DNA from: Candidatus Eiseniibacteriota bacterium
Lineage (GTDB): Bacteria > Eisenbacteria > RBG-16-71-46
Direction of reading: 5' to 3'
Length of the DNA: 64,000 nucleotides
Assembly (NCBI GenBank): GCA_963725865.1
Contig: CAVSAC010000014.1
Coordinates: 1-64,000, forward strand
Shown here piece after piece: positions 5,533 to 33,266 of this stretch. The first letter of the stretch is position 1. The number at the start of each line of letters is the position of its first letter. Both the position numbers and the translations under genes were made by a program. The notes beneath the pieces are model-generated. The model ran no database searches and was not told the origin of the DNA. It worked only from the letters and a program-made list of their open reading frames with translations.

Positions 5533-6837
5533 GTGTTCAAGAACTCATGCATGGGGTTGGCCGCGCTGGCCACGTTTCGGCGCGATCCACAGATGGCATT
5601 GGCCCTGGACGTGAAGCTGGAGGTGGTGGCGGAGGGGTTGACCCATCCGCTGACCATGGTCTCGCCGCCCGGAGACGACCGCAAGTTCATCGTCGAGCAG
5701 ACCGGGACGATCAAGATCCTCGGACGCCGACGGCAAGCTGCTCGACGAGGACTTTCTCAACATCAAGCACAAGCTGCCGCCGCTGAAGTGGGAGTTCGAC
5801 GAAGAGGGCCTGCTCGGCATCGCGTTCCCGCCCGACTTCAAGAAGAGCGGCAAGTTCTACATCGCCTACACCGCGCCAGCTGCGCGGCGACGCGGATCTC
5901 GGCAAGCAGCTCTGGTACGCGCACACCAACGTCGTCGCGGAGATGCGCGTGTCCAAGGACGATCCGAACAAGGCCGACCTCAGCTCTGCGAGCGCATCGT
6001 CCTGCAGATCGACTGGCCGCAGTTCAACCACAACGGTCATCTGGATCGGCTTCGGTCCGGACGGCATGCTGTACGTCTCGACCGGCGACGGCGGCTACGC
6101 CAACGACTGGGGCATCGGCCACAACGTGACGCTGGGCAACGGCCAGGACACGGCTTCGCTGAACGGCAAGATCCTGCGCATCGATCCGACCACGGCGATC
6201 CGCTACACCGTTCCGAAGGACAACCCGTTCGTCGGCAACAGCAACTACGCGCCGGAAATCTGGGCGATCGGCTTCCGCAACCCGTGGCGCTGCTCGTTCG
6301 ACCAGGGCGGCACCCAGGAGCTGTTCTGCGCCGACGTCGGCCAGAACAGCTACGAAGAGGTGGACATCGTCGTCAAGGGCGCGCAACTACGGCTGGCGCG
6401 CGCATGGAAGGCGCGCACTGCTTCGACTACGTCAACCCGAACACCCATCCGGCGACCTGCGACAAGGCCGGGATGACCGATCCGATCATCGAGTACAAGA
6501 ACTGCAGCAACCCGACGTTCGCGGCGAAGGGTGACTGCGAGGGCATCTCGATCACCGGCGGCTACGTCTACCGCGGACCGAACAAGGCCGTGGGACGGCA
6601 TGTACTTCTTCGGCGACTGGAGCAAGTCCTTCCAGGTGGCCGAGGGCGTGCTGTTCGCCGGCAAGCGCTCCGGCAGCACTGGACCAAGGAGAACGGTGAA
6701 GGTGACCAACATCCCGGGCTTCAAGGACTATCATCCTCGGCTTCGGCCAGGACAATCAGGGCAACGTGTACGTCATGGGTACGCGCATCCGCGGTCCCAA
6801 CGGCGAGCAGGACAAGATCTACAAGATCGTGCCCTGA
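5533..6837 (+). CDS. PQQ-dependent sugar dehydrogenase family (glucose/sorbosone dehydrogenase beta-propeller), several frameshifts
   Basis: GTG after gggagga; VAEGLTHP, QFNHNG, FGPDGMLYVSTGDGG, GKILRID, PEIWAIGFRNPWRCSFD, DVGQNSYEEVD, SITGGYVYRG. Confidence 0.88.
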
Positions 6838-6944
6838 AGCCGGTCAACCGCGGGCGGCTTGCCCGCGTTCACGCTGTAACAGCCGGGACACGGACGCGCC
6901 GCGCCGTGTCCCGGCCCATTTCAGAACAGCCGGATCGGAACACC

Positions 6945-7359
6945 ATGGAGAATTCAGCAGTGCGCATCGCGGGGATGCTGTTTGTCATACTGCTCGTCGG
7001 GCTGCCGGTGCGTGCGGAGGATACCCTGTGCAGAACGCAGCCGGATGCGAGCGCGTCGCCACCTGCCGGACGCCAACGCGCCGCTACGCCGGCACCGTTC
7101 CCGAAGGAGCTGCTGGGCAACCCCGAGTACATCGAGCTCGGCAAGGAGGTCTTCGACAAGATCTGCAAGTTCTGTCACGGCAAGACCGCCTACCCGGGCA
7201 AGGCGCCCAAGCTCAATCCCGTCGCGCTATACGCCGGAGTTCGTGTACGACCGGGTCACCAACGGCTTTCGCGGCATGGCGAGCTTCAAGGAGCAGTTCT
7301 CCGACAAGGAGCGTCAGGCCGTCACGGTGTACATCATGAGCAAGGAGTTCTCGAACTAG
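6945..7359 (+). CDS. Monoheme cytochrome c (frameshift near 7222)
   Basis: Signal peptide, GKEVFDKICKFCHG, distal Met in GFRGMASF. Confidence 0.85.
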
Positions 7360-7435
7360 AGATCTTCTTGCGCGGCGCGCGCCGCACGCACACGGCACGT
7401 CGCCCGTCGCGGCGGGCGATGCACGGGAGAATGGA

Positions 7436-8543
7436 GTGACAGGGACAGGTGAGCTGGTGCAGCTGCCACCCGCAGCGAGCGCGCCGGCCACGGTCCTGCG
7501 CGATCCCGGCGCCAAGCTCAAGCACATCGAGGCGTGCCTGACGCAGCCGGTCGAGTACCGCAAGCGCACCGGGTTCGAGGCGTTCGATCTGGTCAACCAG
7601 GCGCTGCCCGAGGTGTCGCTGGGCGCGCTCGATCTGTCCGCATCGCTGGCGGGCAAGACCTTGCGTGCGCCGTTGATGATCGCGCCGATGACCGGCGGGA
7701 CCGAGCAAGGCCTGGCGATCAACCGCCGCCTGGCCGCGGCCGCCGAGCACTTCGGGCTGGCGATGAGTGTGGGGAGTCAGCGCGTGGCGCTCGAGCGGCC
7801 CGAGCTCGCGCGGTTCTTCCTGGTGCGCGACGTCGCTCCCAGCATCGCGTTGTTCGCGAACATGGGCGCGGGCCAGCTGGTGCGCGGCTGGGGCGCGACC
7901 GAGGCACGCCGCGCGATCGAGATGATCGGTGCCGATGCGCTGTTCGTGCATCTGAACCCGATCCAGGAAGCGATCCAGGGTGGCGATCGGGACTTCCGCG
8001 GGCTCGCCTCGCGGCTGTCGCAGCTGTGCAGGGACCTGGGCCGCGAGGGTATTCCCGTGTTCGCTCGCGAAGTGTGCTTCGGCCTGAGTCCCGAAGCGGC
8101 GCGCCGGCTGATCGACTGCGGCGTGTCGGGCCTGGATTGCTCCGGCGCCGGCGGAACCTCGTGGGCGAAGGTCGAAGCCTTCTGCGCGCCCACGCAGCGC
8201 CGGCGCGAGCTGGGCATGCGGTTCGGCGAATGGGGCATCCCGACCAGTCGCTCCATCCGCAACGTGCGCAGCGTCTCGCCGCACGATCTGCCTGATCGCT
8301 TCGGGCGGGCTGCGCAGCGGCATCGACCTGGCCAAGGCCTTGGCGCTGGGAGCCGACGTCGGCGCCATGGCGCGTCCGTTCCTGCTCGCGGCGCACGACG
8401 GAGAGGCCGCGCTGCACCAGCTCATCGAGGACGTCCTGGAGGAACTGCGCATCTGCATGTTCGGGACCGGTGCGGGGGACGTCCACGCGCTGCGGGGAAA
8501 GGTGGAGCCCATAGTCACCTCGCCGCAGGAGCCTTTCGCATGA
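7436..8543 (+). CDS. fni: Type 2 isopentenyl-diphosphate delta-isomerase (frameshift near 8290)
   Basis: KLKHIEAC, APLMIAPMTGG, VGSQR, HLNPIQEAIQGGDRDF, REVCFG, GAGGTSWAKVE, WGIPT, ALGADVGAMARPFL. Confidence 0.92.
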
Positions 8544-8580
8544 TCCCGACGCACGTGTTCAGATCAAGACTCGTCAGACC

Positions 8581-9831
8581 ATGAAACGCGTATCCACGAC
8601 CAATAGCTCGCCCGCCGCGCAGCCTGGAGAGTCGGCGCGCCGTACCACCAGCGCTTCACGGTGGAGTACGACTATCCCGTGCATTTCACCCGCGATCTGT
8701 TCTCCCGCGACAACCCGGTGTTCCTGTCGGCGCTGACCCGCAGGGAACCGGACAAGCGCCATCGCTTCGTCGCCTTCATCGACGCGGATGTGGCGGCGAG
8801 CTGGCCCGCGCTGGCGACGGATATCCGAGCGCTACGCCGAGCACCATGGCGAACGGCTGAGTCTGCTCGCCCCGCCGGAGATCATCGTGGGCGGCGAGCA
8901 GGTCAAGCACGACCCGGAGCTGGTCGTGCGCCTGCAGCGCCGGCTCCTCGATCTGGGCGTCGATCGGCACTCGTACGTGGTGGGCGTGGGCGGCGGCGCG
9001 TTCCTCGATATGGTGGGCTTCGTAGCGGCCACTACGCACCGCGGCGTGCGCCACGTGCGCGTGCCGACCACGGTGCTGGCTCAGAACGACTCGGGCGTGG
9101 GGGTGAAGAACGGAGTCAACACCTTTGGAGTCAAGAACTTCGTCGGCGCGTTCGCCCCGCCGTTTCGCAGTGCTCAATGACGCAGCCTTCCTGCGCACCT
9201 TGCATCCGCGCGACCGCATCGCCGGAATCGCCGAGGCGGTGAAAGTCGCGCTGATCCGCGACAAGGCCTTCTTCGAGTGGCTCGAGATTGCCAGGTGGGA
9301 GCACTGCATGCGGGCGCCCCTGAGGCGATGGCGCGCATGATCCGGCGCTGCGCCGAGCTGCACATGCGCCAGATCGCTCACGGCGGGGATCCGTTCGAAA
9401 CCGGCAGCGCGCGCCCGCTGGACTATGGCCACTGGTCCGCCCACAAGCTGGAGGCCTTGACCAGCCATGAGCTGCGCCACGGCGAGGCTGTCGCCATCGG
9501 CATCGCGCTGGACAGCCGCTACGCGGTGCAGATCGGCATGCTCGCGGAGGGGCTGGATGAGCGCATCTTCTGGATGCTCAAGCGGCTGGGCTTCTATCTC
9601 TGGCATCCGGCCATCGAGCGGCGCGACGCAGACGGTCGCTGGCTGCTGCTGGATGGGCTGCGCGAGTTCCGCGAGCATCTCGGCGGCGAGCTGACCATCA
9701 CGCTGCTGCGCGATATCGGCGTCGGCGAGGAAGTGCACTGGATGGACGAAGAAGAGATAGTCCAGGCTATCGCGTGGCTGCGCAACCAGGATGCCGAGCA
9801 ACGATGCTCGATGGCGGGTGCGGCCATTTAA
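8581..9831 (+). CDS. eboD: EboD-type 3-dehydroquinate synthase-like sugar-phosphate cyclase, copy 1 (frameshifts)
   Basis: [93 protein letters not shown]. Confidence 0.88.
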
Positions 9832-11009
9832 CCTATTGCAGCAACATCCATCCTGGGGAGACCTGGGCCGAGGTGCGGCAAAATCTCGAGTTGCATCTGC
9901 CGCCGATCCGAGCGCAACTGGCGCCGGGCGAACCCTTCGGCATTGGCCTGCGTCTGTCGGCCCAAGCCGCGCAGGCACTTGTGCGCCCTGCCGCGTTGGC
10001 CGATTTCAAAGATTTTCTCTTGCGTGAGCGCTTCTACGTGTTCACATTGAACGGTTTCCCCCATGGCACATTTCACCGTAAGCGAGTCAAGGAAGAGGTG
10101 TATCTTCCCGACTGGGGCAACATCAGGCGTATGCAATACACGGACCTGCTCGCGGACCTGCTGGCAGAGCTACTGCCGGACGAGTGCGGTCTGATCGGCA
10201 GCATCAGCACCGTGCCCGGTGCATTGAAGTCGAATGCGAGCACGCCCGAATCAGTGCAGCGCATCGTTGACCTGATGGTGAGGCATGCAGCCCACCTCGT
10301 GCAGTTGAGAGCGCGCACGGGGAAGCGCATCACACTCGCAATCGAACCAGAGCCCTGCTGCATGCTCGAAACAGTGGGGGAGAGCGTCGCGTTCTTTCGC
10401 GATCATCTGTTCTCCGGCGCCGCGGCGAAGCGACTTTCACAACTCACAGGGCTCAGCCAGCGCAACGCGCAGGAAGCTTTGCACGAACACCTCGGGCTGT
10501 GCCTCAACCTGTGCCACGCTGCGGTGGAGTTCGAAGATCCAGAAGCGTGCGTCAGGCAGCTCGCCGACGCGAACATAGGCGTCTACAAGCTGCACGTCAC
10601 CGCGGGGCTGAGGCTGCCGAAGCTATCCTTAGAGGCGCTTGCGGGCGTGAGGCAGTTCGACGACCCGGTCTACCTACATCAGGTCGTGGAGTTGGGTCCG
10701 GCTGGAATCCGGCGCTACGTCGACCTGCCCGAAGCCCTTAGCAGCCGTAATATGCGAGTGGGCCGAATGGACGCGAGTGGCGCGTACATTGCCATGTTCC
10801 TGTCGTCATCGACGACATGGGCGCGTTCTCATCGACACAGGCGTTCATCCGCGAAATACTGCGCTTGCATCGCACCCGACCTGTCTCCGCGCATCTCGAG
10901 GTAGAGACCTACACCTGGGCCGTATTGCCGCCGCACCTGCGCACCGGAGACATCGATCTGGCCGATCCCGCGGGAGCTGGCCTGGGTGCGCAACGAACTG
11001 GCCGCGTGA
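9804..11009 (+). CDS. eboE: Metabolite traffic protein EboE (xylose isomerase-like TIM barrel), copy 1
   Basis: [62 protein letters not shown]. Confidence 0.9.
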
Positions 11010-11060
11010 CGCTGCCGTCGCGCGCAAGCTCCGGCGCATCTCCAACCGGCCCAACGCGGC
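11006..11060 (+). pseudogene. 5' remnant of an eboC prenyltransferase
   Basis: aagctccggcgcatctccaaccggccc (KLRRISNRP) matches the eboC start aagctcgggcgcatctccaacctgccc (KLGRISNLP) near 30193; similarity then stops. Confidence 0.65.
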
Positions 11061-11099
11061 CGGTATGGCGCGTGCTGTCGCGATGGTGTTCCTGAACCC

Positions 11100-12003: not shown

Positions 12004-12053
12004 CGAAGGATGAAGACGAAAGGGGCGTTCGCCCCCTTCGTCCAAGTTTGCGG

Positions 12054-13784
12054 CTATCGCGCGACCTTGAATGCGAACAGCGCCGCTCCAGAGGGGAATT
12101 CGGCGATCTCGGATAGATCTGCGAAGTCACCGCCTGTAGCGCCGACCCGATCCCGCTGGGTACCAGGATGTACTGTTCGCCGCCGGCCATGTAGCTGATG
12201 ATGCCCCCGCGCGAGCCTGAGCCCATGTTGAACTTCCACAGCTCCTTGCCACTGTCGGCGCTGTAGGCGTACACATAGCCCTTCATGTCACCGCTGAAGA
12301 CCAGCCCGCCCTTGGTGGGACAGGATGGTAGAGATGCGCGGATATTTGTCGGTCACCGACCACTTTTTCTTGCCGGTAAGCGGATCCCAGGGCATCGATG
12401 CCCCGTAAGCCTGGTCACCGGGAGGATGAACCCATTGCAGGTCAGCCCCCGCATACCAGGAGGGAATAGGCTTCATCCTGGGGCGCTCGGGCCGTACTTT
12501 GGCCTGCTCGCACATCTCCTGCCGCGAATTGAACCAGACTCCAGTGTCGGGATTGTACGAGCCCGCGTTCCAGCTTCGCCCACCGCCCATCGACGGGCAG
12601 AACACATTGTTCGGCAGGGTGATGGGACGGCGACCGATCAGCTCCCCGGTCTTGGGGTCGACGGTCTTGACGAAACTGACATGCTTGTTGATCGTCCATA
12701 CATTCTCGATCTTACCGTTGGTGCGGTCGTAGATGTAGACGAACCCGCTCTTGGCCTGATGCAACATCAGCTTCTTGTCGCCCTGATTGATGAGCACGAA
12801 CTCACCCAGCGTGCTGTCGAAGTCCCAATCGTCGTGCGGGTGCTCCTGGAAGTACCACACCAGCTCGCCGCTATCGGGGCGCAGCGCCAGCACCGAGGAG
12901 CTGTATAGGTTGTCACCCGGTCGCGCCCCGACCCCAGGGCACGGAGATACCCCTTCGGACCGTCCAGCGGCGGTGCCCAGGTCGAACCACGGCGAGGGAT
13001 TGGAGGTGCCGTAGTAGATCAGATCGAGCTCGGGATCGTAGCTGCCGACGTGCCACGCGCCCACGCCCGCGTACTTCGCGCTCGACTCGCCGAAGTCGGT
13101 CATGCCCCAGTGCTCCTCGCCCTCTAGGACCGGATCGAAATACCAGACCTTTTGCCCGGACTTTTGATCCACGCCGAAGATGCCGCCGCTGCGAGCGGGA
13201 ATACCGCCCTGCGTGGAGCCGTAGATCACCTTGTCCTTTACCGCCAACGGCGGTGAGGTGAACATGCAGCCGCACTCCATGGTGTCGACCAGCTGCGTCT
13301 CCCACACCGGTTTGCCGGTTTTCTGATCCAGCGCGATGGCACGCCCGTCGATCGTGCCGATGAAGACCTTTCCGTTGGCTACGGCGACGCCGCGCGCGGT
13401 GGGTGCAGTGGGAAGCTGCTCTACGCCGTCTTTGATCTTCGGATAGTAGTGCCAGATCACGTCGCCGGTCCGGCCGTCGACGGCGAAAATGCGGTTGAAG
13501 TTAGCCGAGTAGTAGATGATTCCGTCGAGGGCCACCGGAGTGGACTGCAACCCCTGCGTAATCTCGCCGGGCTGGTGCGTCCAGGCCACGCTCAGCCTGT
13601 GCACATTGCTCTTGTTGATCTGGTCCAGCGGACTGTAGCGGTGAGCATCGTAGGTGCGATGGTAGCTCGGCCAATCTCCGGCAACCGCGTTTTGGATGGT
13701 CTTGACTTCAGCTGCAATGCCGGTGCCAGAGAAACAGAAAGCGAGGACGACGACAGCCTCGCCGGCGACTGTGAGCCTGCGCAT
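12054..13784 (-). CDS. PQQ-dependent alcohol dehydrogenase family protein with lanthanide-type D-x-D motif (frameshifts near 12320 and 12110)
   Basis: DWPSYHRTY, RYSPLDQIN, QSTP, YDPELDLIYYGTSNPSP, RPGDNLYSSS, WYFQEHPHDDWDFD, KSGFVY, FCPSMGGGRSW. Confidence 0.9.
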
Positions 13785-13914
13785 AAATCTCCTCCTCTAA
13801 TTTGATTTTCGTTATGAACGCAGCGGCCGGCTTCGTGATGCGCAACCAAATACTCAACTAAGAACTAAGGCCCTTGCCGCGAGAGCAAAGTAGACCGCGC
13901 TGCGCGAATTCGAC

Positions 13915-13951
13915 AGGGAATGAATCCCTGCGACGCCGGGATCTACTCTCG
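13915..13951. promoter_or_regulatory. Tandem GGGA-N5-TCCC sites upstream of the PQQ dehydrogenase
   Basis: cAGGGA atgaa TCCCTg 13915-13929 and CGGGA tctac TCTCG 13937-13951; 22-bp period. Confidence 0.62.
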
Positions 13952-14004
13952 GAGCCCACCTGGAAGCTTGACTTCCCAACCGGCAGCAACGATCGCCGCG
14001 CGCA

Positions 14005-14115
14005 GCTTGGCGTGGCGAGCACGCCATGGAAACGAATCAGATGCAGCCTCGGAGGCGGGACGAGCGCGGCCAAGCGCTGCATGAGCTCCAGCGGCGACAT
14101 CACGATGGGTGGTCC
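14005..14115 (-). mobile_element. IS91-family transposase C-terminal remnant
   Basis: IVMSPLELMQRLAALVPPPRLHLIRFHGVLA resembles the conserved C-terminal block of IS91/ISCR transposases. Confidence 0.75.
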
Positions 14116-14476
14116 CGTCGCGATAGGGGCTCTTGAGCTGCAGCGCGACTCGGCCGCGCGATTGCGCTTCAGCCGACCGTTGGCTGAAATGGAAGTCTTC
14201 CCGCGAAGCGTCCGTTCCGACCTATGGAACTCTGATCGGGACATTGCCGCGCCGAGCGAGCGTGGACGTTTCGTGCACGACGCGCGCAACCCGGCCCGGT
14301 TTGTCCCAGACCCAAGACCGGCTATCCCAGACACAGGACTTCGGTGTCCCGTACTTCCAATGGCGTAAGCATCCGGGCGTCGCGGCATGGCTCCGAGTAT
14401 GTCGCAGCGCTGCGCTGCTGCGAAGGGGCCGACGCCGCGGCTTCGGCAGACCCGCGGCGCTTCCTGCGGACGCCGG

Positions 14477-17314: not shown

Positions 17315-18646
17315 CAGTGCTGTCCGGACGTTGAACGCCAGGAACGCGATAACGGCTTGATCTGAAATGAACAACTCATGAATTTTCTTGGTCTCGATTT
17401 GAAGTTCGCCGCCTCGATTTGCGATCCTGCGAGGGACTCACTCGCAGGGGGCATCGATGAACTCGGGCAAGCTGGTGTTCGCACAGATCACGCAGCATCT
17501 GCCGCTGACAACGTTTCGGCGTTGCGTGGCGCGCTACGGCGGAGAGCACAAGGTCAAGAGCTTCTCGTGCCTCGACCAGTATCTGTGCATGGCCTTCGCT
17601 CAGCTGACCTATCGGGAGAGCTTGCGCGACATCGAGGCGTGCCTGCGCGCGCAGGCGGACAAGCTCTACCACATGGGCATTCGGAGCCGGGTCTCGCGCA
17701 GCACGCTGGCCGATGCCAACGAAGTGCGCGACTGGCGCATCTACGCCGAGTTCGCCCAGTCGCTCATCGGCATCGCCCGGCGTCTGTATGCGCGAGGACT
17801 CCTTCGGCGGTCGAGCTGAAGGAGACGGTCTACGCGCTGGATGCGACCACGATCGACCTGTGCCTGTCGGTGTTCCCGTGGGCCCCGTTTCGCTCGACCA
17901 AGGCGGCCGTCAAGCTGCACACGCTGCTGGATCTGCGCGGCAACATCCCCTCGTTCATGCATATCAGCGATGGCAAGTTGCACGACGTCAACGTCCTGGA
18001 CCTGCTGCTGCCCGAGCCGGGCGCCTTCTACATCATGGACCGCGGCTACATCGACTTCGAGCGGCTCTATCGCCTGCACGCAGGCCGGCAGCTTCTTCGT
18101 CACGCGCGCCAAGTCCAATCTCAAAGCTCAACGTCGCTATTCCGCATCCGGTCGATCGAAGCACGGGGTTGATCTGCGATCAGACCGATCGTGCTCACCG
18201 GCTTCTATTCCCGCCAGGACTTCGACACGCCGCTGCGGCGCATCAAGTTCAACGACCCCGAAACCGGCAAGCGACTGGTGTTCCTGACCAACAACTTCGC
18301 CCTGCCAGCGATCGACCATCGCCGAGCTCTACCGCTGCCGCTGGCAGGTCGAGTTGTTCTTCAAGTGGATCAAGCAGCATCTTCGGATCAAGGCCTTCTT
18401 CGGCACCAGCGAGAACGCGGTCAAGACCCAGATCTGGATCGCCGTCGTCGGTCTACGTGCTCGTGGCCATCGTCAAGAAGCGACTCAACCTCTCGGCAAG
18501 CCTGTATGAAATGCTACAGATCCTGAGCCTAACCATGTTCGAGCGAGTCCCACTGGATCAGCTACTTGCTCACGTCGTGACCGACGATATCCAGGCCATC
18601 TCCGATAATCAACTGAAATTGTTCGACTAACGTCCGGACACTACTG
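17315..18646 (+). mobile_element. IS4-family insertion sequence
   Basis: Terminal inverted repeats CAGTGCTGTCCGGACGTT and AACGTCCGGACACTACTG (16/18 match) bracket a DDE transposase; no exact target duplication seen. Confidence 0.9.
17457..18630 (+). CDS. IS4-family DDE transposase (frameshifted as read)
   Basis: MNSGKLVFAQ...RESLRDIEACL...YALDATTIDL...AVKLHTLLDL...YIMDRGY...FLTNNF...WQVELFFKWIKQHL. Confidence 0.9.
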
Positions 18647-18830: not shown

Positions 18831-19287
18831 TCAGTGCTTCTTCAGGCTGCGCACGTAGGCGATGATCTTCAGGATGTCGTCCTGGCTCATGCGTTTTCCG
18901 AACGCCTGCATGGCACCGCCGGCGCCGCCGAAGACGACCTCGAACATCCCGGCGTCGGTGGCGACCCGCTCGTAGGTGAAGAATCGCCCACCAGGCTCGG
19001 ACCCATGCGGCCGCTGCCGTCCGGCATGTGGCAGCTCTGGCACCAGGTTTCGTAGAGCTTCTTGCCAGCGGCGAGTGCGCCGGGGTCCCCAAGATACGGG
19101 TTGCGGCCGGATGCGTGAAACGCTTGCACCGCTCGGTGAACTCCTCGCCTGGCTTGGGGCTAACGTCGAGCGCGCTGCCATCGAACGCATTGTGGAACCG
19201 GATTGCGGTTGGGCGAGCCCGCCGAGAAGCACGGACATCGTCGCGTTACCGGCGAGGACCACGCGACCGTCTAGCGTTGCAGTACAA
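18831..19287 (-). CDS. Cytochrome cL (MxaG/XoxG)-like monoheme cytochrome (frameshifts; start approximate)
   Basis: VQAFHASGRNPYLGDPGALAAGKKLYETWCQSCH...MGPSL...MFEVVFGGAGGAMQAF...DDILKIIAYVRSL. Confidence 0.78.
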
Positions 19288-19466
19288 GACAGGCCGTGAA
19301 GGGACGTCGGGAGGTTCTGCGGCTGTCGGCGCAGGTGCCGACCTCGCGTCGGACCAGCAGGCGTGACGGCGGCGGATCCTGCGGCAAGGACGTGCGACTC
19401 CAGCGCGCGACGCGTCGGACCTGAGGGTCAGGCGATCGTCGCACGACGCTGAATCGTGGCTGCAGT

Positions 19467-20915
19467 CTACCGGGCGCGGGTCTTGGCGGTCTCCGCTCCC
19501 GCGGGGACTGGTCCGCCGCCACTACGCGCCACAGCGCGCCGGTCGGGTTCGCCGTCGGACCCTTGTCGTCCAGGTAGAAGCAATAGCAGTTCACCGCCAG
19601 GACCGAGCCGTCCTGATCGTTGTTGCCGCCGGTGAACTGCAGCGCGGTGTGGAGCAGCTCCTGCATCTGCCACTTGCTTGCCGTCCCAGCCCACGCCCCA
19701 GACGCGGCCCGAGCACCAGTCGCCGGCGAGGAACACGCCGTTCATGCCCGGCGTAGTTGGCCACGCCCAGGCCGGTCACCGAGCAACCCCAGCCGTCCTT
19801 CAGCTTGGGTGCACCCGGGTACGGTTCCTGGTGCGGATATTCCGCGACCGGCAGCACGCCCACGATCGGGCAGCGTGGTGTCGGCGCCGAGAATCGGATG
19901 GCATTTCGAGGCCTGATTGTGCTTCCAGCCGTAGTTCTCGCCGCCCTTGCTGGAGCGCGGCTGCCAGTCGATCTCTTCCCAGTGGTTCTGGCCGACGTCG
20001 CCGATCCACAGGTCGCCGGTCTTCGGGTCGAATGAGAACTGCCAGGGATTGCGCAAGACCGTACGCCCAGATCTCGGGCCGCGAGCCGATCTTGATCTTC
20101 GAGAAGCCTTCTTCGGTGATGCCGAACAGGTTCATCATCCGATCCTTGCCGGCCTCGAGGAAAGGGTTGTCGCGCGGGATGCTGTACGCCGCCTGATCGC
20201 CCTTGGTGTCGACGTTGATGCGCAGCATCTTGCCCCACAACTTGCCCAGGTTCTGGCCTGCGTCCAGCGGGTCACCTTCCCACCCGGCATCGCCCTTGGC
20301 GATGTACAGGTAGCCGTCAGGGCCGAACGCGATCTTGCCGCCGTAGTGGTTGTAGTAAGGCTGCGGGATGTTCATGATGACCTTGACGGTCTTGTTGAAC
20401 TGTTCGCTGCGTGACCTGATTAGGGCTGGCGGGATCGACCGTGAAGCGAACGATCAGGTTGGCGCCGTTGAACGGTACCGATGCGAACGAAACAAAAACG
20501 TAGCCGTTGTCCTTGAACTTCGGATGGAACGCGACCGACCACAGGCCCTGCTCGACGAACGCGGTCTGCACTTCGGTGCCGAGCGGGTTGGTCTTGGTCA
20601 GGTCGAGAAACGGCTCCGGCAGAACCTCGCCGCCTGGCGGTCACGACTCGGATCGCGACCGACCCGCTCGACCACGAACAGCCGGCCGGTGCCATCGAAG
20701 GCAGACGCCACACCGACGGGATCGTTGAAGCCGTCGGCCAGCTTGACGAGCGCGATCTTGGGGTTGCCTGGCAGGTTACCTCCTGGACGCGCCACATGAT
20801 CTGGGGTCTTCGGGACAACCTGGCCGGCCGCTGGCAGCGCTAACGCGACCAGCCCTGCCGAGGCAAGCAATGCCATTGCAAATCTGAACAGGTGCTCCTC
20901 CCTCCAATTGAACAT
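19467..20915 (-). CDS. PQQ-dependent sugar dehydrogenase family beta-propeller (multiple frameshifts; start approximate)
   Basis: DGTGRLFVVER, EQGLWSVAFHP, QPYYNHYGG, FGPDGYLYI, PEIWAYGLRNPWQFSFD, DVGQNHWEEID, GENYGW, GCSVTG. Confidence 0.88.
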
Positions 20916-24174: not shown

Positions 24175-25590
24175 ATGAGCCTCACCCGCACGCTCGTGCT
24201 GAACGTCGTCGGGCTCACCCCGGCCTTGCTCGCAGCACGCGCCGAATCTGAACCGGCTCGCGCGCAGCGGCGGCATGCGGCCGCTGACCACCGTCACGCC
24301 CGGCGGTCACGACCACCGTGCAGTCCACGTTCGTGACCGGGGCGCTGCCGCGCGAGCACGGCATCGTCGCCAACGGCTGGTATTTCCGCGATCTCTCGGA
24401 GGTCTGGCTGTGGCGCCAGTCGAACCGCCTGGTGCGGCGGCGAGAAGATCTGGGATGCGGCGCGGCGCCGCGATCCCGCGTTCACCTGCGCCAAGCTGTT
24501 CTGGTGGTACAACATGTATTCGACCGCGGACATCGCGGTGACGCCGCGGCCGATGTATCCGGCCGACGGGCGCAAGCTGCCCGACATCTACACCAACCCG
24601 GCCGAGCTGCGCGACGAGCTGCAGCAGCGGCTCGGGCCAGTTCCCGCTGTTCCGCTTCTGGGGACCGGCCGCCGACATCGTCTCCAGCCACTGGATCGGC
24701 CGCTGCGCGCTGGACGTGTTCGAGCGCCAGCGGCCCGACGCTGACGCTGGTCTACCTGCCGCATCTCGACTACAACCTGCAGCGGCTCGGGCCCGGACCA
24801 TCCGCGCATCGCGCAGGACGTGGCCGAGGTCGACGAGGTCTGCGGCGAGCTGATCGAGGCGGCGCAGCGCGCCGGCGCGCGCGTGATCGTGCTCTCCGAG
24901 TACGGCATCACGCCGGTCTCGAAGCCGGTGCACATCAACCGCGCGCTGCGCCAGGCCGGCTACATCCAGGTGCGCGAGGAGCTCGGCCGCGAGCTGCTCG
25001 ATGCCGGCGCATCGCGCGCGTTCGCGGTCGCCGATCACCAGATCGCGCACGTCTACGTCGCCGAGCCAGCGCTGGTTCCGCGAGGTCAAGGCGCTGCTCG
25101 AAGCGCTGCCCGGCGTCGAGCGCGTGCTCGACGAGACGGCAAGCGCGCAGTGCCGGGCTCGATCATCCGCGCTCCGGCGAGCTGGTCGCGATCTCGCGCG
25201 CCGACAGCTGGTTCACCTACTACTACTGGCTCGACGACGCGCGCGCGCCCGACTTCGCGCGCACCGTCGACATCCATCGCAAGCCCGGCTACGACCCGGT
25301 CGAGCTGTTCCTCGACCCGCAGCTGCCGCTCGCCAAGGCGCGCATCGCCTGGCGGCTGGCGCAGAAGATCCTCGGCTTCCGCTACCTGATGGACGTGATC
25401 TCGCTCGACGCGACGCTGGTGAAGGGCTCGCACGGCCGGCCGACCGACCGCCCCGAGGACGGGCCGCTCTTCATCAGCTCCGAGCCCGGGTCGCTGGCGG
25501 AGGGGCCGGTCGCCGGCGACCGCCGTCAAGGATCTGATTCTCGATCACGTGTTCGCTTCCGGCGCGCAGCCGGCCAGGAGGGCGGCATGA
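24175..25590 (+). CDS. eboF: EboF alkaline phosphatase/nucleotide pyrophosphatase family protein (many frameshifts)
   Basis: [81 protein letters not shown]. Confidence 0.87.
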
Positions 25591-26456
25591 GCCCCGCGCG
25601 ACTTGCTGGACCGCTGGCTCGCGCGCCAGCTGCCCGCCGAGGCCACGGCCTGGCTGGAGAAGTCGGCGGCGCAGCTGCAGATCCTCCGGCACAGGACAGC
25701 GATCTGTACATGGCCGTCAGCCTGGTGACGCGCAAGATCGGCAAGGCCGACCTGCGCCTGAGCGATGCGGATCTGCGCGACGCGAACGCCGCGCGCGGCC
25801 GGGCTGGGACCCGCGCGGCTGGAGCGCCGACCAGGCCGCGCGCGTGCTGCTGGTTCTGGCGCTGGAGGGCGATCCCGCCGCGCCTCGCCCGCTGCCTCGA
25901 TCAGCTCTGCAACACGGCCGACGTGAGCGAGCTGGCGGCGTTCTATCGCGGCCTGCCGCTGTATCCGGATCCAGCCGCGCTACGTGGCGCGCGCGACCGA
26001 AGGCCTGCGCACGAACATGAAGAACGTGTTCGAAGCCGATCGCGCATCGCAATCCGTATCCGAGCGAGCAGTTTCCGGAAGCGGCGTGGAACCAGATGGT
26101 GCTCAAGGCGCTGTTCGTGGGCAGCGCGCTGTGGCCGATCGTCGGGACTCGACCGGCGCGGCCAACCCCGCGCTCGCGCGCATGCTGTGCGACTATGCGC
26201 ACGAGCGCTGGGCCGCCGGCCGGCCGGTGAGCCCCGAGCTGTGGCGCTGCGTCGGCCCGCATGCCACCGGCGCGATGCTGCAGGACCTGGAGCGCGTGCT
26301 GAAGAAGGGAACCGAGCCGGAGCGCAAAGCGGCGGCGCTGTCGCTGCGCGGTTCGCCCGATCCGGCTGCCGCGCGCTGCTGAGCGCGATCCGGTGCTCGT
26401 CGGCGAGCGAGCCGCGGGAGCTTGACCTGGGAGCGGCTCGTGCAGCGCGGGCCTGA
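25587..26456 (+). CDS. eboA: EboA family protein (frameshifts)
   Basis: ATGA overlap with ebo[53 protein letters not shown]. Confidence 0.87.
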
Positions 26457-26490
26457 GCGACGGACGCAACGATTCGCATGGAGGAGAACG

Positions 26491-27416
26491 ATGCAATTCA
26501 TCGACCCGCACATTCACATGAGCGCGCGCACCACCGACGACTACGAGCGCATGGCCGCGGCGGGCATCGTCGCGGTCATCGAGCCGGCGTTCTGGCTCGG
26601 CCAGCCGCGCACCAACGCCGGCAGCTACCTCGACTATCTGTCCAGCCTGGTCGGCTGGGAGCGCTTCCGCGCCGCGCAGTTCGGCATCCGCCACTACTGC
26701 GCCATCGGGCTCAACGCCAAGGAGGCGAACAACGAGGCGCTGGCCGAGGAGGTGATCGAGCTGCTGCCGCGCTACCTGCTGAAGGAAGGCGTGGTGGCGC
26801 TGGGCGAGATCGGCTTCGACGACCAGACCGCCAGCGAGGAGAAGTACTACCGCGCCCAGCTCGAGATGGCCAAGGAGCTCGACATGGTCGTGATGGTGCA
26901 TACGCCGCACCGCGACAAGAAGACCGGCACCATCCGCAGCATGGAGATCGCGCTGGAGCACGGCATCAAGCCCGAGCGCGTGATCATCGACCACAACAAC
27001 GAAGAGACGGTCGAGGACGTGCTCGAGCGCGGCTTCTGGGCCGCGTTCACGCTCTATCCGCACACCAAGATGGGCAACGAGCGCATGGTGGAGATCGCGC
27101 GGCGCTACGGCTCCGAGCGCATCTTCATCGACTCGAGCTCCGACTGGGGCGTGTCCGATCCGCTGGCCGTGCCGAAGACCGCGCAGCTCATGCTCGAGCG
27201 CGGGATCAAGGCCGAGGACGTCGAACGATCGCCTACGGCAACGCGCTCGCGGCGTACGGTCAGACCGGCCAGATGAAAGAGGAGGACTGGCTCGACCCCG
27301 CGCCGATCGACCAGCGCACGCTGTTCGAGGGCAACTCCGTGCTGCGCGGGCAACAGCCGCGCGTGGGCGAGACGCCGCAGACGCCTGGGCGGTTCGAGGA
27401 TGTGGTATTCAAGTAA
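26491..27416 (+). CDS. eboB: EboB TatD-family hydrolase (frameshift near 27225)
   Basis: FIDPHIHMSARTTDDY, EPAFWLGQPRT, GWERFRA, GEIG, HTPHRDK, DHNNE, DWGVSDPLAVPKT, GNSVLRG. Confidence 0.9.
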
Positions 27417-27684: not shown

Positions 27685-28915
27685 ATGAAACCGACCACAA
27701 CTGCCACAGCTGGAGCCAACATCGAACCCGGCGAGTTCGGCGCGGTGTACCACCAGCGCTTCGCGGTGGAGTACGACTATCCGGTCCACTTCACGCAGGA
27801 CCTGTTCGCGCGCGACAATCCGGTGTTCGTCTCCGCGCTTGCGCGCAAGGAACCCAACAAGCGCCATCGCTTCGTCGTCTTCATCGATGCCGACGTGGCG
27901 GCGAGCTGGCCCGCCCTGGCGCACGACATCGCTGCCTACGCCGAGCATCACGCCGACGCGCCTGCAGCTGCTCGCGCTCCGCCGAGATCATCGTCGGCGG
28001 CGAGCAGGTCAAGCACGACCCCGAGCTGGTGACCCGCCTGCAGCACCGCCTGCTCGAGCTCGGCGTCGACCGCCACTGCCTACGTCGTCGCCGTCGGCGG
28101 CGGCGCGTTCCTCGACATGGTCGGCTTCGTCGCGGCGACCACGCATCGCGGCGTGCGCCACGTGCGCGTGCCGACCACGGTGCTGGCGCAGAACGATTCG
28201 GGCGTCGGCGTGAAGAACGGCGTCAACGCGTTCGGCGTCAAGAACTTCGTCGGCACGTTCGCGCCGCCGTTCGCGGTGCTCAACGACGCGAACTTCCTGC
28301 GCACGCTGCACCCGCGCGATCGCATCGCCGGCATGGCCGAGGCGGTCAAGGTCGCGCTGATCCGCGACGCGCGTGTTCTTCGAGTGGCTCGAGTCGCAGG
28401 TCGAGGCGCTGCGCGCCTGCGCGCCGCGAGGCGATGGCGCGCATGATCCGGCGCTGCGCCGAGCTGCACATGCGCCAGATCGCGCACGGCGGCGATCCGT
28501 TCGAGACCGGCAGCGCGCGGCCGCTCGACTACGGTCACTGGTCGGCGCACAAGCTCGAAGCGCTGACCGCTCACGAGCTGCGCCACGGCGAGGCGGTGGC
28601 GATCGGCCTCGCGCTCGACAGCCGCTACTCGGTGCAGATCGGCATGCTCGCCGCCGGGCGAGGAAGAGCGCATCTTCCGCGCTGCTCAAGCGCCTCGGCT
28701 TCTACCTGTGGCATCCCGGCGCTGGAGCGGCGCGGCGCGACGGGCGCTGGCTGGTCCTCGACGGGCTTGCGCGAGTTCCGCGAGCATCTCGGCGGCGAGC
28801 TGACCATCACGCTGCTGCGCGAGATCGGCCGGGGCGAAGAAGTGCACGTCATGGACGAGGACGAGATCCTGCGGGCCATCGCGCTGGCTGCGTCAGCCGC
28901 GAGGCCGCGCAATGA
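27685..28915 (+). CDS. eboD: EboD-type sugar-phosphate cyclase, copy 2 (frameshifts)
   Basis: Same motifs as 8581-9831, with long near-identical nucleotide stretches. Confidence 0.88.
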
Positions 28916-30155
28916 ATCTTCGCAGCGGCGGCGAGCTTCGCTCGGCGCTTGCCACCTCACCTATTGCAGCAACATCCACCCGGGCGAGACCTGGGCCGAG
29001 GTGCGTGCGCAACCTCGGGCGCTACGTGCCGGCGGTGCGCGGCACGGCTGGCGCTCGACCGGCCGTTCGGAATCGGCCTGCGCTTGTCGGCGCGAGGCGG
29101 CGCAGGCGCTCGCGCAACCCGAAGCGATGCGCGAGCTCAAGGACTTTCTGGCGCGCGAGCAGCTCTACGTCTTCACGCTCAACGGCTTTCCCTACGGCAC
29201 GTTCCACGGCACGCGCGTCAAGGAAGACGTCTACCTGCCCGACTGGCGCGACGAGCAAGCGCCTGCAGTACACCGACCAGCTCGCCGACCTGCTGGCCGA
29301 GCTGCTGCCGGATCGAGAGCGGCTCGATCGGCAGCGTCAGCACCGTGCCGGGCGCGTTCAAGCCGAACGCGCGCACGCCCGAGGCCGTCGCAGCGCATGG
29401 TCGACACTGATGGTGCGCCACGCCGCCCACCTGGTGCAGTTGCGGGCGCGCACCGGCAAGCACATCACGCTCGGCGCTCGAGCCCGAGCCGTGCTGCTTC
29501 CTCGAGACGGTCGAGGAGAGCGTGGCGTTCTTCCGCGATCACCTGTTCGCCGACGCCGGCGGTCGCAGCGACTGTGCGAGCTCACCGGGCTCGACGCAGC
29601 GCAGCAGCGCAGCAGGCGCTGCGCGATCACCTGGGGCTGTGCCTCGATCTGTGCCATGCGGCGGTCGAGTTCGAGGATCCCGCAGGGCTGTCGTCGCGCA
29701 GCTCGCAGCAGGCGGGCATCGGCGTGTACAAGCTGCAGATCAGCGCAGGGCTGCGGCTGCCCGAGCTGTCGGCGGCTGCGCTCGCCGGCGTGCGCCAGTT
29801 CGACGACCCGGTGTATCTGCATCAGGTGGTCGAATCGGGGCCCGGCGGGCTGGTCCGCTACGTCGACCTGCCCGAGGCGCTGCGCGCGCCGGCAAGGGCG
29901 CGCGCTGGACGGAGGGAGTGGCGCGTGCACTGCCACGTGCCGATCTTCCTCGACGACCTGGGTGCGTTCTCGTCGACCCAGGCGTTCATCCGCGAGATGC
30001 TGCAGGCTGCATCGCGCCGAGCCCATCTCGACGCATCTCGAGGTCGAGACCTACACCTGGAACGTGCTGCCGCCGCACGCTGCGCACCGGACGACATGGA
30101 TCAGCGCCATCGCGCGCGAGCTGGCCTGGGTGCGCGAAGAGCTGGACGGCGCTGA
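28912..30155 (+). CDS. eboE: EboE, copy 2 (many frameshifts)
   Basis: [63 protein letters not shown]. Confidence 0.88.
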
Positions 30156-30159: not shown

Positions 30160-31053
30160 GTGCAGTTGACCGCGGCGGTGTCGGTCGCCGTCAAGCTCGG
30201 GCGCATCTCCAACCTGCCCACGGTCTGGACCAACACGCTGGTCGGCGTGACGCTGGCCGGGCGGCTCGCTGACTCGACCCGCGCGTGCCGCTGCTGCTCG
30301 TGGCCTTGTCGCTCTTCTACGTGGGCGGCATGTACCTGAACGATGCCTTCGACCGCGAGTTCGACGCGCGCTCGCGTCCCGACCGCCCGATCCCCGCGGG
30401 TCAGGTCAGCGCGTGCGACGGTATTCGCTGCCGGCTTCGGCATGCTCGGCGCCGGGCTGGTCCTGCTGGCGATCGCTGGGTTCGGCTTCCCTGGACGGCA
30501 CCGGCTGGCGGCGCCGTGCTGTCCGGCGCCGCGCTAGGCGCGGCGATCGTGCTCGTACAACGCGTACCACAAGAACAACCCGCTGAGCCCGGTGCTGATG
30601 GGCACTGTGCCGGGTGCTGGTCTACGTCACCGCCGCGACGGCGATCGTCGCTGATCGCCCGACGCGAACCTGCTGCTCGCTGCGCTCGTGCTGCTGAGCT
30701 ATCTGATCGGGCTGACCTACACCGCCAAGCGCGAGCACCTCAACGAGCTGGGCAGCCTGTGGCCGCTGGCCGCGCTTGCCGTACCGGTCGGCTTCGGCGT
30801 CTCTCTGGCGCTGGACGTGCCGCTCGTGTGGCCCTTCCTGCTGCTGTTCGCCGGCTGGATCCTGTACGCGCTGTGGCTGCTGCGGCGCCGCGCGCGGGGC
30901 GATGTGCCGCGCGCCGTGGTCAGCCTCATCGCCGGCATCTCGCTGCTCGACGCGGTGATCCTCGCCGGAGCAGCCGCATGGCCGCTAGGTGTGACGGCAG
31001 TGGCCGCTTTCGCGCTGACCCTGGCGATGCAGCGCTGGGTCGCGGGGACCTGA
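30160..31053 (+). CDS. eboC: EboC-type UbiA-family prenyltransferase (frameshifts)
   Basis: KLGRISNLPTVWTN, YVGGMYLNDAFDREFDARSRPDRPIPAG, YNAYHK, LIAGISLLDA; multiple TM helices. Confidence 0.88.
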
Positions 31054-31101
31054 GTACAACCAACGAGTGCGTTAATAACTATAAGAGCTTTGAGGAGGCG
31101 G

Positions 31102-31539
31102 ATGGGATATCGAATTGCAACTGTTGGGATGTTGTTGGCCATGGTACTGCCGATGACCATGGCGCCGATGATGACCGTAGCACAAACCGCCCCCGAGACC
31201 GGCAAGGAAATTTTCGAACAGATGTGCGCCGGATGCCACGGCACCTATGGTAACGGCCAGGAAGGGACGAAGAGCGGGTTCGTGCCCCGTATCGGCACGC
31301 TCGCCAACAAGGAATACATGGCTTCGGTGCCGGACGACTATCTCAAGATGATCATCAAGAAGGGCGGCGCCTACATGGGCAAGATCGCGGCCATGCCCGC
31401 CTGGGAGCACAAATTCAACGACGAGCAGGTCGCCGACCTCGTCGCCCATATCCGCACGTTCACGGGAACGGCGGAAAAAAAATACGGGATAAGAAAGATC
31501 CGGCCGGTCGAACGGCCAGGGTATGCAGGTACGTCGTAA
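31102..31539 (+). CDS. Monoheme cytochrome c
   Basis: RBS gaggagg; signal peptide; GKEIFEQMCAGCHG; AMPAWEHKF. Confidence 0.9.
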   Translation: MGYRIATVGMLLAMVLPMTMAPMMTVAQTAPETGKEIFEQMCAGCHGTYGNGQEGTKSGFVPRIGTLANKEYMASVPDDYLKMIIKKGGAYMGKIAAMPAWEHKFNDEQVADLVAHIRTFTGTAEKKYGIRKIRPVERPGYAGTS

Positions 31540-31604
31540 CGCAGTTGAAGTGGAATTCTGACGAAGCAAGTGCAGTGGAATTCTAACCAGGAGGAGGAGA
31601 AGAA

Positions 31605-33266
31605 ATGAAAATTCTAATATATGCGGCAATAGTCGCATTGGCGGTGGGGTCCGTATCCGGTTCCGCTTTCGCCCAGGATCGCGCAAAGGCGGAGCCGGGC
31701 GGTCCGGCCGGAAAATGGTCTACGCGCACGCCGGTCACGCCGGACCCGAGCAAGATCAAGGTTCCGCCGGGGTACAAGGTCGGCGGTGTTCGCCTCCGGC
31801 CTCGATACGATCACGTCCATCACGGTCGACAAGAACGACAACGTCTGGGTCGCCATTTCGGGCAACACCTTCGGCTTTCCGCCGGAAGGCATCGACAAGC
31901 CGCACGTGAAGATCTTCGACAAGTCCGGCAAGCTGATCAAGGACAACGTCGGTCTGGGCATGTTCAAGTCCTTTGCCCTGAACGAGATCGGCTATTGCGC
32001 GGAAAACGGCCGCACCTACGTCGGCGACTACAGCTACGGCATCTGGGAAATCGACGGCGTGAACGGCACGCCCAAGCTGATCATGAACGAGGTGCCGATC
32101 GGTGACCACGCGCTCGGCGGCATCACCTGCCGGGACGGTTGGCTGTACTACGCGGTGGGCGCCCCGACCAATTCCGGCTTTTCCGATCCGGACATCCATG
32201 GCTGGACGGATGCGATCGATCCCTACTGGGAAAAGCGCACGACCGCCGGAGTGCCCGCGCTGCCGCGCGATCCGCCCTGCCGGGATATCGTGCTGACGGG
32301 GCTCAACATCCGCGACAAGCGAGGGCAACCTCACGGGCGCGTACCTGCCCAAAGGCACGCCTTCCAAGCCGGGTCAGGTGATCAAGGCGCAAAAGCCGTG
32401 CGGCGGCGCCATTCACCGGGCGAAGCTGAAACCCGACAGCAGCTACACCGCGCGACGACTGGGAAGTGTATGCGATGGGATTGCGCAATTCGTCCGGTGT
32501 CGCCTTCGGTCCCAAGGGCTCGCGGTTCGAGAACGCCCTGGCCGTCAGCGACAACGGGCATAACGACAAGGGCAATCGCCGCGTCGCCAACGGCGCCGAG
32601 AAGCTCTTCATCTTCACCGAGAAGGGTCAGGACGCGGGCTTTCCGGACAAGGAAGGCATGAACTTCGTGAACATCAAGCGCTACGGGCCTGACGTCTATC
32701 GCGGCAACAAGTTCGACAGCACGCGGCCGAATCCCCAGCTGTACATCGGGGACAAGCCGTTCATTCCGAAGCTGCCGCCCTACCGGTTCATCGACCATTC
32801 GATCGGCGTTCGCGGCACTCCGCTGATCGTCGCCAATCCCAACCCCAACGGCTACATCAACCCGGTGATGGAATGGGACACCAACAACCCGATGGACGGG
32901 TTGGCCTGGGCGCCGAAGGCCTTCGGTGCGCCGGGGGACACGATCTTCACCGCGGTGTTCGGCATCATCGACAACGGTCCGGAAAGCCTGCGCCCGATGT
33001 GGCCGGCGATCGTGAAGATCGAGTTCCTCAACCCGACCGGCGTCAAGTGGTCGATCTTCGCCGAAAACATCGATCCGGGCCCCAACGCCTACCAGAAGAA
33101 GGAAAACCGGGGCGGGTTCGAGCGCACCAACGACGTCGAGTTCAGCATCGACGGCAAGACCATGTACGTTGCGGACTACGGCGAGCTCTACGTGAACTAC
33201 CAGATGGAATCGCCGTTCTACACGACGCCGAAGTCCGCGGTCGTCTGGACCATCACGAAGGAGTAG
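31605..33266 (+). CDS. Secreted beta-propeller protein, divergent glucose/sorbosone dehydrogenase-like (frameshifts)
   Basis: Strong RBS, signal ending AFA; IKVPPGYKV, GWLYYAVGAPTNSG, MGLRNSSGVAFGP, GGFERTNDVEFS, MYVADYG. Confidence 0.75.

Follow-up and report, generated by a model that had tools for sequence, protein, structure and literature searches.

The first 64,000 nucleotides of contig C14 (CAVSAC010000014.1) of a genome assembly assigned to Candidatus Eiseniibacteriota (GCA_963725865.1; 5.2 Mb, 70-74% GC), called the window here, contain two groups of co-oriented genes in which parts of an ebo operon stand beside propeller-type dehydrogenase and cytochrome c genes (Table 1). Unit 1 consists of a GSDH-type propeller gene, a class I cytochrome c gene, fni (type 2 isopentenyl diphosphate (IPP) isomerase, IDI-2), eboD and eboE. 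Unit 2 consists of eboF-A-B-D-E-C, a second cytochrome c gene and a second propeller gene, referred to as the 570-aa (amino acid) type. The analysis bore out the gene families, their order, their orientation on the + strand and the strong terminator after unit 2, all of which had been named in an earlier reading of the letters alone (the original prediction). An eboC remnant that this reading placed at the end of unit 1 was not found: tblastn with three EboC proteins against 10900-12400 gave matches with E > 1 only, and the frameshifts and the foreign origin treated below had been missed.

The family assignments rest on pieces that are compared here with intact relatives (loci and genomes are labelled L and G, respectively). 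The L038 orthologue of the unit 1 propeller aligns by tblastn in frames 1, 2, 3 and 1, and PF07995 scores 67.5 and 40.7 bits on the window fragments and 133.6 bits on this orthologue. TIGR02151 matches the window fni in two frames with 264.2 bits (profile positions 3-257) and 71 bits (257-331), each below the cut-off of 281.3 bits; the L038 Fni, to which the window protein is 69% identical, is intact and scores 346 bits. EboE is identified by a unit 1 piece of 328 bits, against an NF035939 cut-off of 250 and 462-466 bits for the intact proteins of L008, L009 and L038, and EboD, a member of the DHQS-like family whose enzyme activity is known from the literature, by pieces that cover NF004852 positions 13-400 in both units (570-585 bits in relatives). 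No tblastn match to eboF, eboA or eboB was found in unit 1; these three genes occur clustered in unit 2 only, where EboB aligns over 247 aa at 92% identity with the proteins of L008 and L038 before the frame changes (tblastn). The EboC of the window reaches 40 bits with NF035940, over positions 42-83 in one open reading frame (ORF). In intact relatives EboC scores 98-106 bits, which is also under the cut-off of 250, yet this profile is the best match and the gene position is conserved. A class I cytochrome c with its CxxCH motif is present in both units.

Unit 2 has the six families, in the same order, of the Pseudomonadota-type eboFABDEC operon as defined in the main text of Yurchenko et al. 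2016 (PMC5133447), and the ebo operons of Burkholderiales metagenome-assembled genomes (MAGs) share 80-87% DNA identity and up to 92% protein identity with the window. To this known type the window adds the GSDH-type propeller with its cytochrome c, IDI-2, a second propeller of the soluble glucose dehydrogenase (sGDH) fold with a further cytochrome c, a second partial set (eboD-eboE) and frameshifts throughout.

Frame damage and origin of the contig end

Units 1 and 2 comprise 14 genes, of which frameshifts split 13 and leave only the cytochrome c gene of unit 2 whole; in nearly every gene the family matches are spread over two to four frames. All eight ebo genes of the window are broken by indels that are not multiples of three, and none has an intact coding sequence. 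To count these indels, the window was aligned with three or four related operons and only indels unique to it were considered; the short-read references L009 and L011 were present in the three ebo-gene alignments and not in that of the 570-aa gene. In 10,644 alignment columns we found 69 window-specific indels, 63 insertions and 6 deletions, none of them a multiple of three. They are distributed over eboF-A-B (23; 19 insertions, 4 deletions), eboD-E-C of unit 2 (39; 37 insertions, 2 deletions), eboD-E of unit 1 (5 insertions, 0 deletions) and the 570-aa gene (2 insertions, 0 deletions), and the inserted stretches are one or two bases long. Indels specific to a reference numbered 0 in L009 and L011 and 0-2 in L010, L008 and L038 for the ebo-gene alignments, and 4 in L008 for the 570-aa alignment. 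After frame correction the sequence has no stop in 2,087 codons. The 450 window-specific substitutions (107 GC to AT, 131 AT to GC, 212 other) show no GC-to-AT bias. The damage also reaches genes outside both units, namely those for MtrB/PioB, SufS, SufB/D and a response regulator. Sequencing error throughout the genome was rejected as a cause, because the GSDH genes and sufB elsewhere are whole and ORF integrity is normal there.

The first 32 kb of C14 are the contig minimum both in GC content (0.641, mean 0.718) and in the cover by long ORFs supported by GC at the third codon position (0.12, mean 0.78). Low GC together with low ORF cover flagged C14:1-96 kb alone in the whole genome; C12:1-32 kb combines a GC of 0.665 with a normal ORF cover of 0.79. 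Within this genome eboE is confined to the window, and it was found in none of 40 host relatives from genus to class level. The nearest relatives are Burkholderiales or betaproteobacterial MAGs, with unit 2 at 80-87% DNA identity, and synteny with Burkholderiales MAGs covers window positions 1-20 kb at 73-82% DNA identity, well past the ebo genes. Further along, C14:84-104 kb matches all five Burkholderiales MAGs at 72-77% identity; the matches are scattered over many different contigs and are therefore taken to be conserved core genes. Host relatives have no match to the window at 1-20 kb or to C14:84-104 kb beyond one conserved gene, and match C14:124-144 kb at up to 92% identity over many kilobases. 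The switch from Burkholderiales-like DNA to synteny with G001, a relative of the host from the same genus, falls at C14:116.4-119.1 kb. Local GC dips to 0.67 at C14:116-118 kb, and no tRNA gene was found at the junction (C14:104-144 kb). An intact sufB (730 bits) is located at C14:1.50 Mb in a sufB-sufD pair (C14:1499452-1502114), the window copy being a second one in pieces, and the seven other GSDH genes of the assembly are whole. The original prediction had stated that no pqq genes are present in the window, and in agreement with this pqqC was not found in the whole assembly.

The best reading of these data is that the first ~117 kb of C14, including both units, are a piece of a Burkholderiales-like betaproteobacterial chromosome joined to the contig end of an unrelated high-GC bacterium. 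As the consensus is poor, with one- and two-base insertions in nearly every gene, the broken frames would then be sequence or assembly errors. It is quite likely that we are dealing with such a mis-joined, poorly resolved stretch rather than with real pseudogenes. The alternative, a real and very large block that the host acquired horizontally and that decayed to pseudogenes by true frameshift mutations, appears unlikely. It would be in line with the contiguity of the block with host DNA in the assembly, with the remnants of IS91- and IS4-type transposases inside it, with an excess of substitutions at codon positions 1 and 2, and with the assembly lacking a detectable pqqC, which would render the propellers useless there. 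Bacterial decay in nature is deletion-biased, however, while insertions here outnumber deletions by 63 to 6. Neither a GC-to-AT bias nor a nonsense codon accompanies them, the block has a duplicate suf operon as well as core genes that recur in each of the five Burkholderiales MAGs, its position is at the end of a contig, with only one border visible, and parts of its genes are still 90-92% identical to relatives at the protein level.

Several observations nevertheless weigh against a mis-join. Low coverage and the mis-join itself are inferred and not seen in source reads. Codon positions 1 and 2 hold 241 of 434 window-specific substitutions, compared to ~30% in the references, and the share of transitions is 0.36-0.45 in the window and 0.47-0.69 in the references; real relaxed selection would give the same in both cases, the second effect being mild and not decisive. 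The absence of stop codons is a weak argument when taken alone, since random placement predicts 2.3 stops for eboF-A-B and 190 of 2000 simulations had none. Transposase remnants between the units are what a real island would have, and GC climbs gradually without a single step. The clustering of mismatches near indels (0.20 compared to 0.14 of columns near indels) is again a mild difference that decides for neither reading. No sequencing run was found that contains more than 0.10 of the sequence words. Contigs obtained from four sequencing runs are short and mostly 85-95% alike, and at some insertions (26143, 26159) they are without the single bases; as they come from relatives only and not from the source, they cannot separate error from mutation. 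Under either reading, the window shows no working system in the host.

A propeller-cytochrome c pair in intact relatives

To evaluate the association of ebo genes with propellers in undamaged DNA, we surveyed the best 80 of 479 eboE-seeded loci, which are mostly from Proteobacteria, and counted proteins of at least 50% identity as GSDH orthologues. Such an orthologue occurs in 21 of the 80 loci, in all 21 with a cytochrome c gene directly downstream, and the distance between the pair and the closest ebo gene is 15-1176 bp. Where at least 5 kb were available on both sides, it was found in 13 of 33 loci. The 21 linked loci belong to Burkholderiales, Alphaproteobacteria, Granulosicoccaceae and Rokubacteria/Methylomirabilota records. 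fni was present in 4 and the 570-aa protein in 5 of the 80 loci. In L038 (= L096, L097) eboF-(A)B-D-E-C is followed by GSDH, cytochrome c and fni, and the 570-aa protein and a further cytochrome c are encoded upstream in divergent orientation. L098 carries GSDH-cytochrome c-fni-eboD as in unit 1. A reverse search seeded with GSDH in metagenome contigs gave 29 loci, of which 25 were at orthologue level; cytochrome c was the next gene in 21 and ebo genes were present in 12. Most of the 13 loci without ebo genes are on contigs shorter than 6 kb.

In 201 genomes from the order of the L038 genome (Burkholderiales), seven had both the GSDH orthologue and eboE, two the GSDH orthologue only, five eboE only and 187 neither. 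Both genes were on one contig and strand, 1-6.3 kb apart, in 7/7 genomes. As related genomes are not independent, no P value is given. The gene neighbourhoods thus sustain the predicted ebo-propeller linkage for the GSDH-cytochrome c pair, which appears to be a regular, hitherto undescribed companion of ebo operons. This module is accessory, occurring in about one quarter to one half of all sampled clusters, and would therefore explain lineage-specific chemistry rather than the core pathway.

The same cannot be said of the second propeller as an ebo partner. Of the 12 ebo-positive genomes in the order sample, 10 encode the 570-aa protein, which is also found in seven eboE-less genomes. In the eboE-seeded survey it is adjacent in 5/80 loci only. 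As it is rarely near ebo and also occurs without eboE, its link to ebo is much weaker. At G069:C15:59661-78947 and in G077, a stretch of less than 20 kb holds the GSDH orthologue together with another GSDH and the 570-aa propeller, with no eboE found in the genome; such propellers may constitute a separate unit that is able to exist without ebo.

The claim that ebo is coupled twice to such enzymes is doubtful as well. A single eboE was found in all 12 ebo-positive genomes of the order sample, unit 1 has no eboF, A, B or C, and the window copy is damaged and probably chimeric. The eboD-E blocks of the two units share 79% DNA identity; homologous loci from two related strains or organisms may have been merged here in one consensus. 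Upstream of both units there is a direct repeat of 74% identity (window 997-1405 and 21507-21918), which corresponds to the 3' part of a response-regulator region. L013 and L080, ebo loci from separate contigs of a single MAG record, are each 63% identical to the query EboE; either a true duplication or a binning artefact may account for this. A gene of 426-467 aa with a possible signal peptide, convergent on eboC in L008 (12026-13426), L009 (8361-9638), L010 and L011, matches neither a Pfam nor an NCBIfam profile and is absent from the window.

Some findings weigh against a firm association of the pair with ebo: the GSDH orthologue is missing from 59 of 80 loci and from 5 of 12 ebo-positive genomes of the order sample, eboE was not found in 2 of the 9 genomes with the orthologue, and the GSDH-seeded contig L105 has no ebo genes in 6.6 kb upstream. 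For the 570-aa propeller, only 1 of the 10 co-occurring genomes, that of L038, has it co-located with ebo. These orthologue-bearing genomes without eboE and the L105 contig, together with further GSDH and PQQ alcohol dehydrogenase (ADH; PQQ, pyrroloquinoline quinone) genes in the larger neighbourhood, would also fit an ordinary periplasmic aldose or sugar dehydrogenase that travels with ebo through shared regulation or a common island and has no chemical link to it. We consider this rather improbable. The pair varies in position across several phyla (before eboD, eboE or eboF, or after eboC) and still stays inside or beside the operon, with gaps down to 15-50 bp and in most loci on the strand of its ebo neighbour. 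In addition, the ebo-linked copies are 54-68% identical across phyla, whereas other GSDH copies in the same loci reach 24-38%.

In their intact orthologues, the four accessory proteins have N-termini resembling signal peptides, and each cytochrome contains one CxxCH. Among PDB sequences the GSDH orthologue matches the HHIP propeller best (E 2e-44), followed by sGDH (E 6e-19) and aldose dehydrogenases, and 1c9u, 3a9g and 2g8s are among the matches. For intact orthologues of the 570-aa protein neither a Pfam match nor a PDB sequence match was obtained, and the protein atlas gave feature-based leads only. The model of the L038 orthologue, calculated from a 39-sequence alignment (predicted local distance difference test, pLDDT, 73; predicted template modelling score, pTM, 0.77), is a six-bladed propeller with long low-confidence insertions (residues 368-422 and others). 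A fold search with this model returned PQQ glucose/aldose dehydrogenases and AA12 enzymes with E values of ~1e-11 and a target TM of 0.55-0.69, the best matches being 2ism (E 6.5e-12) and 1cq1 (E 1.6e-11). The fold thus confirms that the propeller of unit 2 is, as predicted, a different one.

Both propellers share the six blades and the secretion signal with sGDH of Acinetobacter and Asd/YliI of E. coli; the PF07995 match is shared by the GSDH type, and the 570-aa type belongs here by fold. In contrast to these enzymes, each propeller has a dedicated small cytochrome c gene as its partner inside a secondary-metabolite operon, the GSDH type matches the PQQ-free HHIP best and the 570-aa type has no Pfam match, and PQQ binding is putative for both. 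PQQ-ADH with cytochrome c550 PedF is a quinoprotein dehydrogenase with a dedicated c-type cytochrome acceptor. Here, too, a periplasmic propeller gene is followed by a small class I cytochrome c gene, and the cytochromes give a weak match to TIGR04494 (c550_PedF), among others. The propellers differ from that system in being of the six-bladed sGDH type and not of the eight-bladed methanol dehydrogenase (MDH)/ADH type, and electron transfer within the pair is predicted.

Other features of the window

The region between the units holds a truncated PQQ-ADH-type gene, two transposase remnants and a third GSDH-like gene (Table 1), as well as genes for ZrgA, ExbB and EF-hand proteins. An extracellular electron transfer or iron oxidation cluster with several cytochromes c occupies window positions 42372-54000. 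It includes a NapC/NirT (CymA-like) tetrahaem protein at 44255-45004 and two tandem pairs of a multihaem cytochrome and an MtrB/PioB-type porin (46310-47365 with 48114-49460, and 51093-51758 with 51762-53941), the porins being frame-split. Among the few whole long genes of the window is an ORF of 1313 aa (37843-41781, - strand) with a SEC-C motif, TPR, a family 2 glycosyltransferase and two sulfotransferase regions; a second sulfotransferase gene adjoins it at 41785-42441. The second suf operon (NifU-like, SufS, SufD/B) lies in frame pieces at 59100-64000 and continues to C14:64655.

Table 1. Genes and other features of units 1 and 2 and of the region between them (window positions)
Feature	Position	Strand	Remarks
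Unit 1
GSDH-type six-bladed propeller dehydrogenase	5521..6831	+	at least 4 frame pieces; PF07995 on a 177-aa piece
Class I cytochrome c	7095..7359	+	CKFCH; one frameshift; tblastn pieces in frames 3 and 1
fni (IDI-2)	7499..8507	+	one frameshift; TIGR02151
eboD (sugar-phosphate cyclase)	8634..9798	+	NF004852 in four frame pieces; insertions 8831, 9166, 9288
eboE (TIM barrel)	9804..11000	+	NF035939 328 bits, and 76 bits in a second frame; insertions 10756, 10964
Between the units
PQQ-ADH-type eight-bladed propeller, truncated	12288..13784	-	N-terminal 339 of 595 profile positions; PF01011, 219 bits; 90% DNA identity to L098
IS91-type (Y2) transposase remnant	13861..14388	-	PF04986
IS4-like transposase (DUF4372 and DDE_Tnp_1)	17378..18630	+	split over frames; 80% DNA identity to G041:C1:117345-118613
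Third GSDH-like gene, fragmented, with cytochrome c fragment downstream	18890..20631	-	PF07995 and PF13442 fragments; tblastn; 81% DNA identity to L097, L098
Unit 2
eboF (phosphodiesterase/pyrophosphatase family)	24175..25517	+	several frameshifts; PF01663 over two ORFs; tblastn frames 1, 2, 3
eboA	25758..26442	+	several frameshifts; NF035937/NF035938 pieces in four ORFs; tblastn frames 3, 2, 1
eboB (TatD-like hydrolase, PF01026)	26488..27413	+	one deletion at 27224, near the 3' end
eboD	27721..28868	+	many insertions; NF004852 pieces in three ORFs
eboE	28944..30144	+	many insertions; five NF035939 fragments in 28956-30135, each at most 133 bits, one with TGA
eboC (UbiA-like prenyltransferase)	30160..31050	+	several insertions; tblastn residues 1-294 of L038 EboC, 53% identity
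Class I cytochrome c	31090..31539	+	intact; CAGCH and signal peptide; PF13442/PF00034; 59% identity to L008 cytochrome c
Second, divergent sGDH-superfamily propeller (570-aa type)	31521..33266	+	insertions 31785, 32448; 74-90% identity to L038 in pieces
Intrinsic terminator hairpin	33279..33314	+	16 pairs, then T run

Possible role of the accessory genes

Taken together, a mis-joined, Burkholderiales-like piece of DNA with a poor consensus that carries a proteobacterial ebo cluster with an accessory propeller-cytochrome module is, as a joint explanation, the probable one. For the source organism and its intact relatives, the observations are best explained by a proteobacterial eboF-A-B-D-E-C operon extended by a secreted GSDH-type propeller and its own class I cytochrome c, the pair often being predicted to be co-transcribed with the ebo genes. 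IDI-2 and the second sGDH-fold propeller, whose sequence is very divergent, would be further additions in some Burkholderiales, the latter with another cytochrome c.

The ebo chemistry regarded as established in the original prediction is outdated. According to the text portions available of a recent preprint (bioRxiv 10.64898/2026.05.21.724671), ebo genes are needed for thallusin, EboC farnesylates hydroxylated quinaldic acids, and the pathway, for which metabolite production is described there in strains of other phyla, is that of thallusin/saccharoquinoline, farnesylated hydroxyquinoline meroterpenoids. The same text assigns no enzyme to the oxidative rearrangement of saccharoquinoline to thallusin, suggests that the effect of ebo on scytonemin may be indirect, limits its genome screen to ebo and ino genes, and puts the number of ebo clusters at 3,403. 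The main text of Yurchenko et al. (PMC5133447) leaves inserted non-ebo genes unanalysed, and the terms sorbosone, cytochrome c, isopentenyl and PQQ are absent from the main texts of both papers (PMC5133447 and 10.64898/2026.05.21.724671), as is 'periplasm' from that of the preprint. A 2026 review (PMC12904256), in the sections available, still calls the ebo product unknown and mentions three extra EDB genes of unknown function, and these genes of the Pseudomonas EDB cluster might be the accessory genes described here. In searchable texts, a scope outside which the EDB cluster papers and the preprint supplements lie, no paper links ebo with sorbosone dehydrogenase. A comparable situation is found in Nostoc punctiforme. 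There, the available text of Klicki et al. 2018 (PMC6282210) connects ebo with export to the periplasm and with the oxidation step of scytonemin formation that ScyE, a Sec-secreted protein, performs in the periplasm; both the product and the partner proteins are different from those considered here.

We propose that the accessory genes may form a periplasmic oxidative tailoring module. The membrane enzyme EboC would make a prenylated hydroxyquinoline, and the periplasmic PQQ-type propeller would oxidise this product, or an intermediate of the pathway, handing the electrons over to its partner cytochrome c, from which they would reach the respiratory chain. IPP and dimethylallyl diphosphate (DMAPP) for the farnesyl donor would be kept in balance by IDI-2. 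In its most specific form, the proposal takes the pair as the dedicated periplasmic oxidase of the ebo product in Proteobacteria and Rokubacteria, oxidising a saccharoquinoline-type meroterpenoid to the ring-opened thallusin type or to a quinone, with electrons entering respiration; this version is speculative, and we give it a low probability.

The original prediction had suggested that an ebo-made prenylated cyclitol is the substrate, cofactor or cofactor carrier of these dehydrogenases. From that interpretation the conserved linkage of the GSDH-cytochrome c pair stands, while the cofactor idea, the double coupling and the older chemistry do not. pqqC was found in 8 of the 9 cluster-bearing genomes, so that no new cofactor is needed. 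The exception, which weighs against PQQ as the cofactor, is the Rokubacteria genome behind L064 (G049, 6.7 Mb), where the linkage is present (GSDH-cytochrome c-eboD-E-C) and pqqC was not found; in this lineage either PQQ is scavenged or the propeller does not use it. It is likewise unfavourable that the GSDH orthologue is nearer by sequence to the PQQ-free HHIP than to sGDH. Both points would suit an undescribed, PQQ-independent periplasmic redox system in which the ebo product is a new cofactor or carrier of the propellers, as would the tight and conserved co-location of the GSDH-cytochrome c pair with ebo and the redox-capable hydroxyquinoline that, on our reading of the preprint chemistry, ebo produces. 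We hold this to be very unlikely in view of pqqC in 8/9 cluster genomes, of the 59 of 80 ebo loci that have no such propeller, and of the preprint, which shows a diffusible signalling product in four phyla and in its available text is silent on these partners (10.64898/2026.05.21.724671).

For the assembly, these results mean that the initial ~117 kb of C14 are to be excluded from the host sequence and that the 'pseudogenes' there should not be counted as decay; otherwise ebo, Mtr/Pio-type and PQQ-enzyme genes would be ascribed by annotators to an Eisenbacteria-type organism. For the ebo family, what is new is a known cluster in which a secreted dehydrogenase of the sGDH type occurs together with its own cytochrome c and, in some cases, IDI-2. 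The ebo genes have just been tied to an algal morphogen whose late oxidative chemistry is without an assigned enzyme in the available text of the preprint (10.64898/2026.05.21.724671). A specific candidate for oxidation or tailoring in the periplasm is the secreted propeller that, accompanied by its own cytochrome c, is encoded close to ebo genes in Proteobacteria and Rokubacteria from soil and water; if it acts in this way, it would represent a quinoprotein serving as a natural-product tailoring enzyme.

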